A stretch of DNA of 64,000 nucleotides, taken from the NCBI RefSeq assembly GCF_044324875.1, contig NZ_CP172185.1; one strand, given 5' to 3'. The number at the start of each line of letters is the position of its first letter. The stretch's first letter is position 1. This DNA is from Escherichia coli. Its GTDB lineage: Bacteria > Pseudomonadota > Gammaproteobacteria > Enterobacterales > Enterobacteriaceae. Under the pieces are notes generated by a model, which saw only the letters and a list, made by a program, of their open reading frames with translations, was not told the origin of the DNA and ran no database searches. Both the position numbers and the translations under genes were made by a program. Shown here one piece after another: positions 29,899-36,971 of this stretch.

Positions 29899-29946
29899 AT
29901 GATTTAATAGATAGTATTCAGTGTATGTATGAGTTCCACACCCATT

Positions 29947-30753
29947 ATGAAAGCATTCTGGCGTAACGCCGCGTTGCTCGCGGTTTCTCTGCTTCCCTTC
30001 TCTTCTGCCAACGCCGTGGCGTTGCAGGCAAAACAGTATGGCGATTTTGATCGCTATGTCCTGGCCCTCTCCTGGCAAACCGGATTTTGCCAGAGTCAAC
30101 ACGATCGAAATCGTAACGAACGAGATGAATGTCGCCTGCAAACCGAAACGACCAACAAAGCTGATTTTCTGACCGTACATGGTCTGTGGCCAGGATTGCC
30201 TAAATCGGTTGCTGCCCGTGGTGTTGATGAACGCCGCTGGATGCGCTTCGGTTGCGCTACCCGCCCAATCCCGAATCTACCAGAAGCGCGCGCCAGCCGA
30301 ATGTGTTCATCGCCGGAAACTGGGTTATCGCTGGAAACGGCAGCTAAACTAAGTGAAGTCATGCCAGGAGCTGGCGGACGTTCCTGCCTGGAACGCTACG
30401 AATATGCCAAACACGGTGCCTGCTTTGGTTTTGATCCAGACGCATACTTCGGCACGATGGTACGCCTGAATCAAGAAATTAAAGAGAGCGAAGCCGGAAA
30501 ATTCCTTGCGGATAATTACGGTAAAACAGTGAGCCGCCGTGACTTTGACGCCGCCTTTGCCAAAAGCTGGGGAAAAGAGAACGTGAAAGCAGTTAAGCTA
30601 ACGTGCCAGGGTAACCCTGCGTATTTGACTGAAATTCAGATCTCGATCAAAGCTGACGCCATCAACGCTCCGCTTTCTGCCAACTCATTCTTGCCACAAC
30701 CACACCCAGGCAACTGTGGCAAAACCTTTGTGATTGATAAAGCAGGTTATTAA
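29947..30753 (+). CDS. rna: periplasmic ribonuclease I (RNase T2 family)
   Basis: ORF trimmed to MKAFWRNAALLA start (268 aa); signal peptide; RNase T2 CAS motifs (FLTVHGLWP, YAKHGACF). Confidence 0.9.
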   Translation: MKAFWRNAALLAVSLLPFSSANAVALQAKQYGDFDRYVLALSWQTGFCQSQHDRNRNERDECRLQTETTNKADFLTVHGLWPGLPKSVAARGVDERRWMRFGCATRPIPNLPEARASRMCSSPETGLSLETAAKLSEVMPGAGGRSCLERYEYAKHGACFGFDPDAYFGTMVRLNQEIKESEAGKFLADNYGKTVSRRDFDAAFAKSWGKENVKAVKLTCQGNPAYLTEIQISIKADAINAPLSANSFLPQPHPGNCGKTFVIDKAGY

Positions 30754-30900
30754 TCCTCTGATTTACAAAACACGCTAATTCGTCTTCCATAAACCATGAC
30801 GATTAAGATTTATACATAATGCACTGCATTGAGGAATTCCCTGAATGTGACGCAAATCACTTCAAAGAGTGAGCAACAGTCAGTATCATCATGTGAGTTA

Positions 30901-30935
30901 AACCCTCGCCGCCTGACGGTGAGGGTTTTCTTTTG
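30901..30935 (+). terminator. terminator hairpin downstream of rna
   Basis: AACCCTC-N13-GAGGGTT followed by TTCTTTTGGG. Confidence 0.6.
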
Positions 30936-30982
30936 GGTATGTTTATCTGCGACACTCGCAGTACCGACGACATGGAGTAAAA

Positions 30983-31393
30983 ATGTCCAGACCAACTATC
31001 ATCATTAACGACCTGGATGCCGAACGCATCGATATTCTGCTGGAGCAACCCGCCTATGCTGGTTTGCCAATCGCCGACGCGTTAAACGCAGAGTTGGATC
31101 GCGCCCAAATGTGTTCGCCAGAAGAGATGCCACACGACGTGGTGACAATGAACAGCCGGGTTAAATTCCGCAATCTTAGCGATGGCGAAGTGCGTGTGCG
31201 CACGCTGGTGTATCCGGCAAAAATGACCGACAGCAATACTCAGCTTTCCGTTATGGCTCCGGTAGGTGCCGCACTGCTGGGGCTGCGCGTTGGCGATTCC
31301 ATTCACTGGGAACTTCCGGGCGGCGTTGCAACCCACCTTGAAGTGCTGGAACTCGAATACCAGCCAGAAGCTGCTGGCGACTACCTGCTTTAA
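30983..31393 (+). CDS. rnk: regulator of nucleoside diphosphate kinase Rnk (GreA/GreB-like)
   Basis: 136 aa matching remembered Rnk. Confidence 0.88.
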
Positions 31394-31425
31394 TCCCATC
31401 TGCACAAGCGATAACTCGCTTTGCC

Positions 31426-31449
31426 CAGAGGATGCACTCGCATCCTCTT
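31426..31449 (+). terminator. hairpin downstream of rnk
   Basis: AGAGGATGC-ACTC-GCATCCTCT followed by a weak T tract. Confidence 0.5.
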
Positions 31450-31535
31450 TCCGCTCAAATATCAACCAGATTTATCATTTTGCTCTTAAGCGCAGCATTC
31501 TAATCTGAACTGGTTATTCATCTGCGGAACCTCAT

Positions 31536-31625
31536 ATGAGCGAAGCTCTCGGTATCACTGCATTTTATATATTCATAGCCGCAATTATTGTTGCTGCAGT
31601 GCTATACCTTGAACAACGCTGGTAG
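31536..31625 (+). CDS. candidate 29-codon micro-ORF encoding a single-TM peptide (hypothetical)
   Basis: ATG...TAG, MSEALGITAFYIFIAAIIVAAVLYLEQRW; GGAA about 8 nt upstream; hydrophobic core of about 19 residues; below the 60-aa cutoff of the supplied ORF track. Confidence 0.2.
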   Translation: MSEALGITAFYIFIAAIIVAAVLYLEQRW

Positions 31626-31748
31626 CGCCTGGTTTTATTTATTTTCCAGCTCAATAGCAAATTCAGATCAAATCAGCCTCGCAAATCATAGATTCATAAC
31701 CAATAATGTGCTGTTATGTATACATGCAAAAACAAGGAGAGAATGCTT

Positions 31749-32177
31749 ATGTACAAAACAATCATCATGCCAGTGGATGTTTTCGAAATGGAATTGAGCG
31801 ACAAAGCGGTTCGCCACGCTGAATTCCTCGCCCAGGATGACGGAGTTATTCATCTACTTCACGTACTACCGGGGTCAGCCAGCCTGAGCCTGCACCGTTT
31901 TGCCGCTGATGTACGTCGTTTTGAAGAGCATCTGCAACATGAAGCAGAAGAACGTTTGCAAACGATGGTCAGCCACTTCACCATCGATCCTTCCCGCATT
32001 AAGCAACATGTCCGTTTTGGTAGTGTGCGGGATGAAGTTAACGAGTTAGCGAAAGAACTTGATGCAGATGTAGTAGTGATTGGTTCGCGTAACCCATCAA
32101 TTTCAACTCATCTGTTGGGTTCTAACGCCTCGAGCGTGATCCGCCACGCCAATTTGCCGGTGCTGGTTGTGCGTTAA
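31749..32177 (+). CDS. uspG: universal stress protein G
   Basis: ORF trimmed to [10 protein letters not shown] start (142 aa), preceded by AGGAG RBS; Usp-fold C-terminus (VVIGSRN...). Confidence 0.88.
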
Positions 32178-32196
32178 TTGCCAGAATAAGTATCCC

Positions 32197-32229
32197 GCCC
32201 TGCCCGGAGCCATCCCGGTGGGGCTTTTT
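32197..32229 (+). terminator. terminator hairpin downstream of uspG
   Basis: GCCCTGCC...GGTGGGGC stem (two G-U pairs) followed by TTTTTA. Confidence 0.5.
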
Positions 32230-32235
32230 ATTGCC

Positions 32236-32267
32236 ACAAAAAAGCCGCCAGGTTTGACCCCGGCGGC
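32236..32267 (-). terminator. rho-independent terminator of ahpF
   Basis: minus strand reads GCCGCC-GGGGTCAAACCT-GGCGGC followed by TTTTTTGT. Confidence 0.7.
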
Positions 32268-32297
32268 TAAGCAATTGCAGGTGAATCTTACTTCTTC

Positions 32298-33863
32298 TTA
32301 TGCAGTTTTGGTGCGAATCAGGTAGTCAAAAGCACTCAGAGAGGCTTTGGCACCTTCGCCAGTGGCGATGATGATCTGCTTGTACGGAACCGTCGTACAG
32401 TCACCCGCTGCGAACACGCCTTTCACGTTGGTTTCGCATTTCGCATCAATGATAATCTCGCCCATGCGGTTACGTTCGACTGCGCCTTCGAGCCAGTTGG
32501 TGTTCGGCAGCAGACCAATCTGCACGAAAATACCGGCCAGTTCGATGTTGTGAATATCGCCGCTGACACGATCGCGATATTCCAGACCAACGACTTTGCT
32601 GCCGTCGCCTTTCACTTCCGTGGTTTGCGCATTCAGAATAATTTCGACGTTTTTCAGGCTGCGCAGTTTGTCCTGCAGAACCTGGTCGGCTTTCATTTCT
32701 GGCGCAAATTCCAGCAGCGTTACGTGCTCAACGATACCCGCCAGGTCAATTGCCGCTTCCACGCCGGAGTTACCGCCGCCGATAACCGCTACGCGTTTAC
32801 CTTTAAACAGCGGGCCGTCGCAGTGCGGGCAGTAGGTCACGCCTTTGGTGCGATACTGATCTTCGCCCGGAACGTTCATGTTGCGCCATTTTGCACCGGT
32901 CGCCACGATAATGCTGCGTGCTTTCAGTACCGCGCCAGAAGCTGTTTCAATCTGATGCAGGCCACCTTCAACCGCTGCCGGGATCAGTTTGCTGGCGCTC
33001 TGGCTGTCGATCACATCAACGTCGTATTCATCAACGTGAACTTTCAGCGCACCTGCCAGTTTCTGGCCTTCGGTCTTCGGTACAGAAATGTAGTTTTCGA
33101 TATCAACGGTATCGAGGATCTGACCACCAAAACGTTCGCCCATCAGACCGGTACGGATGCCTTTACGTGCGGAGTAAATTGCTGCCGCTGCACCCGCCGG
33201 GCCGGAACCGACGATTAATACGTCATAAGCATCACGCTTGTTCAGCTCTTCTGCCGCACGTTTTTCCGCGCCAGTATCAATTTTGGCGACGATTTCAGTC
33301 AACGTCATGCGACCCTGACCAAACTCTTTCCCGTTTACGAACACTGCCGGAACGCCCATCACGTTGCGATCGGTGATTTCGTTCTGGAAGGTGCCGCCGT
33401 CAATTGCAGTGTGCTTGATGCGCGGGTTCAGTACGCTCATCAGGTTCAGCGCCTGCACCACGTCCGGGCAGTTGTGGCAAGAGAGCGAGTAATAGGTTTC
33501 GAATTCAAAATCACCGTCAATATGGCGAATCTGCTCCAGCAGAGACTGCGCTTCTTTCGACGGATGACCACCGGTCCACAACAACGCCAGTACCAGCGAG
33601 GTAAACTCGTGGCCCAGCGGGGAACCTGCAAAACGTGGCCCCTGGTTAGAACCTGGGTTAGTGATCAGGAAAGACGGCTTACGCACCGGCAAGCTGTTAT
33701 CTTCTTTAAAGGTGACTTTGTCTGACAGTTCTGCGATTTCAGCCAACAGTTCCTTGATTTCTGCCGATTTAGCGCTGTCATCCAGCGTGGCAATTAACTC
33801 AACAGGCTTGGTCAATTTCTCAAGGTAAGCCTTGAGTTGAGTTTTCATATTTGTGTCGAGCAT
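32298..33863 (-). CDS. ahpF: alkyl hydroperoxide reductase subunit F
   Basis: ORF trimmed to MLDTNMKTQ start (521 aa); two redox CxxC centres (CHNCPD, CPHCDG); FAD/NAD GxGxxG motifs. Confidence 0.95.
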
Positions 33864-33885: not shown

Positions 33886-33969
33886 ATCATCATGCAAGCG
33901 GCCTCTGCGGCTACCTGGATGCAGCTTGCATCATGGTGCGGGGAAGAAAATCGGGTGCCGCAGCACCCG
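33886..33969 (-). other. nested hairpins in the ahpC-ahpF spacer (candidate partial terminator/processing structure)
   Basis: 12-bp inverted repeat CATCATGCAAGC...GCTTGCATCATG (33886..33936) and CGGGTGC-CGCA-GCACCCG (33952..33969). Confidence 0.4.
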
Positions 33970-34033
33970 AAGAATTAGGTGAATTTCCGAAGTATTTCGC
34001 GCCGGAGTTGGTAGCGCGAAAGACGAAGGAAAT

Positions 34034-34597
34034 TTAGATTTTACCAACCAGGTCCAGAGACGGAGCCAGAGTTACTTCACCTTCTTTCCATTTAGCCGGG
34101 CAAACTTCACCTGGGTGAGAAGCTACGTACTGTGCTGCTTTGATTTTACGCAGCAGGTCAGACGCGTCACGGCCAATGCCTTCAGCGGTAACTTCGATTG
34201 CCTGGATGATACCCTGCGGGTCAACAACGAAGGTCGCACGGTCAGCCAGACCTTCATCTTCACGCATGTTGTCGAAGTTACGGGTCAGGGCGCCAGTCGG
34301 GTCGCCGATCATCGCATATTTGATTTTAGCGATGGTTTCAGAGCTGCTGTGCCATGCTTTGTGGGTGAAGTGAGTATCGGTAGATACTGCGTATACGTCT
34401 ACGCCCAGTTTCTGCAGTTCTTCGTAGTGGTCAGCAACGTCACCCAGTTCGGTCGGGCATACGAAAGTAAAGTCAGCCGGGTAGAAGAAGAAGACGCTCC
34501 AGCGGCCTTCGGTATCTTTTTCGGTGATTTCGATGAATTCGCCGTTTTTGAATGCCTGGTTTTTAAAAGGTTTAATTTTGGTGTTAATCAAGGACAT
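34034..34597 (-). CDS. ahpC: alkyl hydroperoxide reductase subunit C (peroxiredoxin)
   Basis: 187 aa; peroxidatic Cys motif FTFVCPTE and resolving Cys near the C-terminus. Confidence 0.95.
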
Positions 34598-35715: not shown

Positions 35716-35922
35716 AATATAATTCATGGATGGTTGAAATATATCCCTGCTTTTCAACCATCCTAAAAAAGCATGAATTGCTCGCTCTACCCTAAGTGGC
35801 TGTGCTATTTTAGAAAAACTTAATCCTGAGTTAAGCAAAAAAACATAATACAAATAAATACAACAGCAACATTATTGATCAAGTGAATGATTTATAGAAG
35901 AGATAATATAACGGAGTATGTT

Positions 35923-36825
35923 ATGGCGAATCTTTATGACCTAAAAAAATTTGATCTGAATTTACTGGTCATATTTGAGTGTATTTATCAACATCTCAGC
36001 ATTAGTAAAGCGGCAGAATCATTATATATAACGCCCTCTGCTGTTAGTCAGTCGTTACAACGTTTACGTGCGCAATTTAATGACCCGTTATTCATTCGCT
36101 CAGGGAAAGGTATCGCGCCGACTACGACAGGGTTAAATCTGCATCATCATCTTGAGAAAAATCTCAGAGGCATTGAACAAACGATCAATATTGTTAATAA
36201 GTCTGAGCTAAAGAAAAATTTTATTATCTACGGTCCTCAGCTTATTTCTTGTACTAATAACAACATGCTAATCCGCTGTCTTAGACAAGATACTTCAATC
36301 GATATAGAATGCCATGACATACTGCTTTCAGCTGAAAATGCCGAAGAACTGTTGGTTCAACGCAAAACTGACCTGGCAATTACACTACAACCAGTAATTA
36401 GCCGCTCTGTCATCTGCATGCCGTTACATACTATTCGCAATTCTCTTATATGTAGCAACAAACATCCTCGTATTACCGATACCAGTAACTATGAACAAAT
36501 TATCGCCGAAGAATTCACCTTGTTAATATCTAAATCAGCAGGGATTGACGAAATTCAAATGGACATAGATGAACGTTTTATGAACCGTAAAGTTTCATTT
36601 CGCAGTTCTTCTTTGTTGACGATAATTAATAGTATTTCTGTTACTGACTTATTGGGCATTGTGCCCACCGAACTGTACGATTTACATCGTGATTTTTTGA
36701 AGTTACAAGAGATAAAACTGGAACGACCACTTCCTGCGGTTAAACTTTATATTTCCTATAACAAGGCTTCGTTGAACAACCTTGTCTTCTCACGATTCAT
36801 AGATCGTTTAAATGATAGCTTCTGA
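35923..36825 (+). CDS. ybdO: LysR-family transcriptional regulator YbdO
   Basis: ORF trimmed to MANLYDLKKFDLNLL start (300 aa); N-terminal HTH; conspicuously AT-rich coding sequence. Confidence 0.8.
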   Translation: MANLYDLKKFDLNLLVIFECIYQHLSISKAAESLYITPSAVSQSLQRLRAQFNDPLFIRSGKGIAPTTTGLNLHHHLEKNLRGIEQTINIVNKSELKKNFIIYGPQLISCTNNNMLIRCLRQDTSIDIECHDILLSAENAEELLVQRKTDLAITLQPVISRSVICMPLHTIRNSLICSNKHPRITDTSNYEQIIAEEFTLLISKSAGIDEIQMDIDERFMNRKVSFRSSSLLTIINSISVTDLLGIVPTELYDLHRDFLKLQEIKLERPLPAVKLYISYNKASLNNLVFSRFIDRLNDSF

Positions 36826-36971
36826 TTTATTACCACGGATAAATGTTATATTACGCATCAATTGATTCATTGTGTGAATATAAAATAATGTGCTCTATCT
36901 TGCTTCGTTTACCCTATAATTAGCGGATTCATCTCACGAGTCACCCCGTAACGTTCAGAGAGCGTTTTCAG

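Follow-up and report, generated by a model that had tools for sequence, protein, structure and literature searches.

The 29-codon reading frame of the ybdR-less rnk–uspG spacer in Escherichia coli is very probably yldA, a gene for a predicted small membrane protein

The rnk–uspG spacer and its 29-codon reading frame

The stretch of DNA analyzed here, hereafter the window, comprises 64,000 nucleotides of Escherichia coli (RefSeq assembly GCF_044324875.1, contig NZ_CP172185.1) in which rnk, ending at 31393, and uspG, starting at 31749, enclose a spacer of 355 bp (31394-31748). These coordinates had been given in an initial annotation made from the sequence alone, together with the statement that the spacer holds no long open reading frame (ORF), and both are borne out: the longest ORF lying wholly inside the spacer encodes at most 31 residues, and the longer ones that enter it (127, 80, 69 and 55 aa) all extend into rnk or uspG. 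The features of the locus are listed below.

29929-30753, plus strand: rna
30829-30937, plus strand: rnk leader RNA (Rfam RF01771 'Enterobacteria rnk leader', 124.9 bits against a gathering score of 50, full length 1-109)
30983-31393, plus strand: rnk, nucleoside diphosphate kinase regulator; left flank of the spacer, 99.8% nucleotide identity to K-12
31402-31424 and 31427-31448, plus strand: two hairpins 3' of rnk, from folding
31455-31730, plus strand: haplotype-specific segment of 276 bp, the K-12 counterpart of which is 1,611 bp
31526-31529, plus strand: weak Shine-Dalgarno sequence GGAA, 6 nt 5' of the yldA ATG
31536-31625, plus strand: yldA, 29 codons and a stop codon, Escherichia-type allele (RefSeq WP_001287361.1, NF041476)
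31626-31748, plus strand: yldA-uspG spacer of 123 bp, without terminator-like structure
31749-32177, plus strand: uspG, universal stress protein G; right flank of the spacer, with the same start as in RefSeq, haplotype-linked allele
32298-33863, minus strand: ahpF

A terminator-like hairpin at 30900-30928 closes the match to the rnk leader, just 5' of rnk.

The micro-ORF to which the initial annotation drew attention has the position and the ATG start proposed for it and encodes MSEALGITAFYIFIAAIIVAAVLYLEQRW. The weak GGAA sequence described ahead of it is found 6 nt from the ATG, at a site where the aligned loci of relatives carry a G-rich motif. Residues 5-23 of the product form a hydrophobic core (mean Kyte-Doolittle value of 2.67) that is compatible with one transmembrane helix, and the suggestion that the ORF is a gene for a small protein with a single transmembrane segment agrees both with this predicted helix and with the conservation of the frame described below. 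By itself, an ORF of 29 codons is no more than chance expectation in a spacer rich in AT. The frame might be a fortuitous one in a non-coding spacer made up of the 3' end of rnk and the promoter of uspG, its RefSeq label having been propagated by similarity. This reading draws on the unremarkable length of the ORF for 355 bp of AT-rich DNA, on the several other ORFs of 20-31 aa listed in the same spacer, on the weak Shine-Dalgarno sequence and the failure to find a promoter, and on the caution expressed by VanOrsdel et al. that the annotation of sORFs is unreliable (PMC6001520). We consider it extremely unlikely in view of the comparative evidence presented in the next section and of the detection of the K-12 orthologue as a protein.

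The gene is in fact already known, with a name, an NCBIfam model, a RefSeq accession and a published detection. RefSeq labels the ORF 'yldA: small membrane protein YldA' in matching genomes, among them that of strain AR_0013, which is 100% identical over the 751-bp query (31200-31950) and has yldA annotated at the same place (WP_001287361.1). The product matches the NCBIfam equivalog NF041476 ('membrane_YldA') over model positions 1-29 of 29 with 59 bits and an E-value of 3.2e-16, the cut-off being 45 bits; the K-12 allele scores 57.9 bits against the same model. The features of the family are present, namely a length of 29 aa, one hydrophobic helix, the AVLYLE end and the invariant residues A21, V22, L25 and E26, and so is its conserved position on the same strand as rnk and 3' of it, with the ATG 142 nt after the rnk stop codon. 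We put at about 90% the probability that 31536-31625 is yldA, a real and catalogued gene for a predicted 29-residue, single-pass inner membrane protein, lying here in the short, ybdR-less haplotype that is one of two common ones.

In K-12 MG1655, yldA (b4734, YP_009518757.1; 643330-643419) maps between ybdR (b0608) and rnk (b0610). The statement in the initial annotation that K-12 carries ybdR between uspG and rnk is therefore correct, and the window strain is without it; the placing of the micro-ORF 'where K-12 carries ybdR' has to be amended, since K-12 has both genes. The K-12 and window proteins belong to the same NF041476 family, have the same length of 29 aa, are encoded 3' of the rnk terminator and are alike in their C-terminal half (AAIIV-x-AVLYLE), but are identical at only 15 of 29 residues (52%), the two alleles sharing about 54-55% of their nucleotides. 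The neighborhoods differ as well: K-12 yldA converges on ybdR, from whose stop codon it is separated by 3 bp, whereas the window has no ybdR, and the next gene after its yldA is uspG, in the same orientation.

YldA (MAEAFYILIGFLIMAAIIVMAVLYLENHS) is among the 'SPs detected in this study' reported by VanOrsdel et al. in 2018 by SPA tagging of the chromosomal gene (PMC6001520); this detection concerns the K-12 allele only, with which the window allele has 15 of 29 residues in common. From homology and the purifying selection documented below, we infer that the window allele is also made as a protein. The membrane localization of YldA is predicted only from its hydropathy. Neither a function or partner of YldA, nor a functional study or fractionation data, was found in the searchable literature.

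Conservation of yldA in Enterobacteriaceae

Scanning one genome per species with Rnk as the query yielded 80 Enterobacteriaceae loci, 34 of which carry a 29-codon, ATG-initiated ORF 3' of rnk, with or without ybdR. Both yldA and ybdR are present at 12 of the 80 loci, yldA alone at 21, ybdR alone at 10 (Salmonella, for example) and neither gene at 34; the three remaining loci end before the next gene, and one of these three carries yldA. At 32 of the 34 species loci, approximately 128-150 nt separate the rnk stop codon from the start codon of yldA. All 36 yldA sequences collected have an ATG start and exactly 29 codons in spite of DNA that is only about 50-70% identical between genera.

Variation among the 36 sequences is concentrated at third codon positions (summed column entropies of 19.1, 14.0 and 34.3 for positions 1, 2 and 3, respectively) and the mean pN/pS is 0.37, a substitution pattern that reads as the signature of a peptide under selection. 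Of the 36 sequences, 33 have stop codons in one of the two alternative frames of yldA and 27 in the other. At the protein level, the family follows the consensus MxExLxITLxFLIxxAIIVxAVLYLERHW, in which six residues (M1, E3, A21, V22, L25 and E26) are invariant. It is the conservation of the ORF (its fixed length, its fixed position and the concentration of changes at third positions), not its length as such, that argues for a real peptide gene, and the same constancy of length and start codon, third-position variation, pN/pS value and invariant residues speak against a chance ORF.

yldA has undergone repeated losses. Two subspecies of Salmonella enterica, diarizonae and arizonae, have kept ybdR and lost yldA, with only ~90 bp left between rnk and ybdR, and the six loci of the Citrobacter freundii group have neither yldA nor ybdR, their rnk-uspG interval amounting to ~186-205 bp.

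Relationship to YoaI and possible mode of action of YldA

The window YldA scores 30 bits (E 4e-7) and the K-12 YldA 22.5 bits (E 8.7e-5) against NF041475, the NCBIfam model of the small protein YoaI. Both values fall short of the cut-off of 45, and the assignment of YldA to the YoaI family was rejected on these grounds. YldA nevertheless appears to be a relative of YoaI standing outside that family. Aligned with K-12 YoaI by hhalign, a profile of 33 YldA sequences gave a probability of 91.7% and an E-value of 7.7e-7, the alignment pairing V22 of YldA with V27 of YoaI, E26 with E31 and Glu3 with Glu8. An HMM built from YldA gave YoaI 18.9 bits (17.0 as a six-frame segment). The top score among 20,555 six-frame decoys was 7.3 bits, and 10,000 shuffles all stayed below 18.9 bits.

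YoaI (b1788; 34 aa) is a PhoB-induced membrane protein that binds to the sensor kinase EnvZ and activates it. It resembles YldA in having a single transmembrane helix, an acidic N-terminus and a conserved glutamate at the start of a short cytoplasmic tail; YldA is five residues shorter at the N-terminus and is encoded at another locus. Ser26, Val27 and Glu31 are invariant in YoaI (PMC11429745). The valine and the glutamate are conserved at the aligned positions of YldA, and Ser26 is aligned to an invariant alanine. Glu31, located in the cytoplasmic tail of YoaI, is required for the binding of EnvZ and for the activation of an EnvZ-OmpR reporter (omrB) (PMC11429745). As an alternative to paralogy, it is possible that the likeness reflects the convergence of two short transmembrane peptides, given that the comparison involves 29 mostly hydrophobic residues and that shuffles preserving the ends of YoaI scored up to 18.6 bits, close to the 18.9 of YoaI itself.

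The relatedness of YldA and YoaI, together with the retained glutamate, provides a testable hypothesis for an uncharacterized protein. YldA would probably insert in the membrane with its short acidic N-terminus outside and its E-Q/R-R/H-W tail in the cytoplasm and, by analogy with YoaI and EnvZ, would probably bind a larger membrane protein through the invariant AV-L-Y-L-E motif formed by the end of the transmembrane helix and the juxtamembrane Glu26. An N-out, C-in single-pass protein binding a larger membrane partner is, in our opinion, the best-supported hypothesis on the action of YldA. Small single-pass membrane regulators of enterobacteria (reviewed in PMC12648545) include MgrB, which acts on PhoQ. 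Regulators of the MgrB type resemble YldA in their size (<50 aa), in their single transmembrane helix and in the presumed binding of a larger membrane protein but bear no sequence relationship to it.

Two haplotypes and their transcriptional context

The initial annotation viewed the spacer as a strain-level indel point. The comparison with K-12 calls for a different description, that of a segment replaced, 276 bp in the window (31455-31730) standing for 1,611 bp in K-12. The 98-99% match to K-12 runs up to 31454, just past the second rnk hairpin, and restarts at 31731, 18 nt short of the uspG start codon; the 1,611 bp of K-12 contain the K-12-type yldA, the convergent ybdR and a divergent ybdR-uspG spacer. 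No match to YbdR was returned by tblastn over the whole 64-kb window, so that ybdR has not been relocated within these 64 kb, and the K-12 query maps to a single place in short-form genomes, so that these have no close copy of it elsewhere. When the spacer was searched by Smith-Waterman alignment for traces of ybdR and of the intergenic DNA of K-12, the scores were at the chance level (13 against 10.6 +/- 1.8 and 9 against 8.4 +/- 1.7 for shuffles).

The divergence extends into uspG, which is 92.7% identical to its K-12 counterpart at the nucleotide level, compared with 99.8% for rnk and 98.8% for ahpF. Across its length (31749-32177), uspG is a mosaic relative to K-12, with patches of 83-88% identity, notably at 31731-31830 and 32031-32130, within sequence that is 96-98% identical. 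Such patches suggest that recombination has had breakpoints within uspG, in linkage with the yldA/ybdR haplotype.

As to the extent of the polymorphism, a megablast search with 31200-31950 against 5,426 complete E. coli genomes found matches in 5,422. The short form (at least 80% of the query) is present in 1,815 of them, the long K-12-type form in 3,600 and something else in about seven. The locus is therefore polymorphic among strains, as the initial annotation had surmised, yet this is no strain oddity; the dimorphism is species-wide. The short group includes a strain of O25b:H4-ST131 and the long group includes K-12, HS, O157:H7 and O145 strains. No papers dealing with ybdR together with phylogroup were found in the literature.

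Outside the species, the short form was found in E. albertii, in Escherichia sp. MOD1-EC7003 and in a divergent lineage labeled 'E. coli' (L004), all three of which are without ybdR. Their YldA sequences match that of the window at 28 or 29 of 29 residues, and the underlying DNA, at 88-95% identity, has diverged to a flank-like extent. On grounds of parsimony, the occurrence of the short form at such divergence in these three lineages suggests that the short haplotype is probably the form native to Escherichia. The K-12 yldA allele has no relative above ~69% nucleotide identity in the 80-species sample, where it comes closest to Citrobacter koseri and the C. amalonaticus group; K-12 ybdR is ~79.5% identical to the ybdR genes of Salmonella and C. 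sedlakii, a value within the range seen for the flanking genes. No recent donor of the K-12 haplotype was thus apparent among the 80 species, the closest candidates standing at ~69% for yldA and ~80% for ybdR, and we infer that the long haplotype was either imported long ago or retained as an ancestral polymorphism.

A simpler history, in which the short spacer results from a recent deletion of ybdR from a K-12-like ancestor, has in its favor the presence of ybdR at the same place in K-12, Salmonella, C. sedlakii and many Enterobacter, and the flank-range identity of K-12 ybdR just mentioned, which would fit an old, vertically inherited ybdR lost repeatedly in the family. Such an event would be expected to leave behind a K-12-type yldA and junction, both of which are absent from the window, and it accounts neither for yldA alleles that share 54-55% of their DNA and are set in unalignable non-coding sequence, nor for the contrast between uspG and rnk in their identity to K-12, nor for a short form common to E. 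albertii and two further Escherichia lineages. We regard a recent deletion as very unlikely and favor the replacement of the whole segment. The presence or absence of ybdR itself is ordinary pan-genome variation. We note that work on K-12 YldA is not automatically transferable to about one third of E. coli strains, including ST131, because the short-form allele differs at half its residues and has another transcriptional context.

Folding of 31394-31540 gave a minimum free energy of -43.4 kcal/mol (z -5.05), and the second of the two hairpins 3' of rnk, AGAGGATGC-ACTC-GCATCCTCT, is followed by TT only, on account of which it is probably a leaky rnk terminator. Among 18 aligned loci, which come from several genera, 17 have this hairpin (AGAGGATGC-N4-GCATCCTCT) in nearly unchanged form. 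A scan for consensus sigma-70 promoters and terminators found none before yldA or uspG. The fixed distance of yldA from rnk suggests that the gene depends at least in part on read-through from rnk, and yldA is probably transcribed with rnk or just after it, through the weak terminator.

The 123 bp between yldA and uspG are less structured than shuffled sequences (z +1.94), and their folding disclosed no terminator or riboswitch-like element. No known RNA family was found in the spacer by an Rfam scan of 30700-32400 at permissive E-values, the rnk leader upstream being the only one recovered; a snoRNA-like match in the spacer (27 bits against a gathering score of 45) was dismissed as a chance hit. 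Since no terminator-like structure separates the two genes, transcription may run on from yldA into uspG in the short haplotype, and either the uspG promoter must lie within 31626-31748 in this haplotype or the segment must be read through from yldA. In K-12, the convergent transcripts of ybdR and yldA overlap, an arrangement termed an 'excludon' (PMC12288877); interference of this kind is impossible in the haplotype of the window, from which ybdR is absent.

The arrangement of rnk, yldA and uspG on one strand, the lack of a terminator between yldA and uspG and a uspG upstream region unrelated to that of K-12 would also be compatible with yldA being translated as a cis-acting leader or upstream ORF that sets the expression of uspG, the peptide itself having no role. 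What is conserved, however, is the amino acid sequence itself, beyond the act of translation. Moreover, yldA ends 123 nt from the uspG ATG, and K-12 and 12 species retain it at loci whose next gene is the convergent ybdR, so that nothing lies downstream to be regulated. A purely leader-like role is for these reasons very unlikely in our estimation.

A broader proposal would combine the two lines of evidence: YldA would be paralogous to YoaI and would use its invariant Glu26 to modulate a sensor kinase or some other membrane protein, and E. coli would maintain two very old alleles of it, tied to the presence or absence of ybdR and to distinct uspG promoters and alleles. We advance this proposal as speculative and, taken as a whole, rather unlikely. 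If true, two major groups of strains would differ in their small-protein signaling input and in their control of uspG.

Two other differences from K-12 were observed in the vicinity. Positions 35857-36955 are ~68-80% identical to K-12 amid DNA that is 97-100% identical and, by offset from AR_0013, coincide with citR (formerly ybdO), encoding a LysR-type repressor; with citR, deep allelic divergence occurs a second time, ~4 kb away from the yldA/ybdR dimorphism. The ahpF-ahpC spacer (33931-34056) displays an indel, measuring 128 bp in the window haplotype and 244 bp in K-12, where the extra sequence may be a REP-type element.
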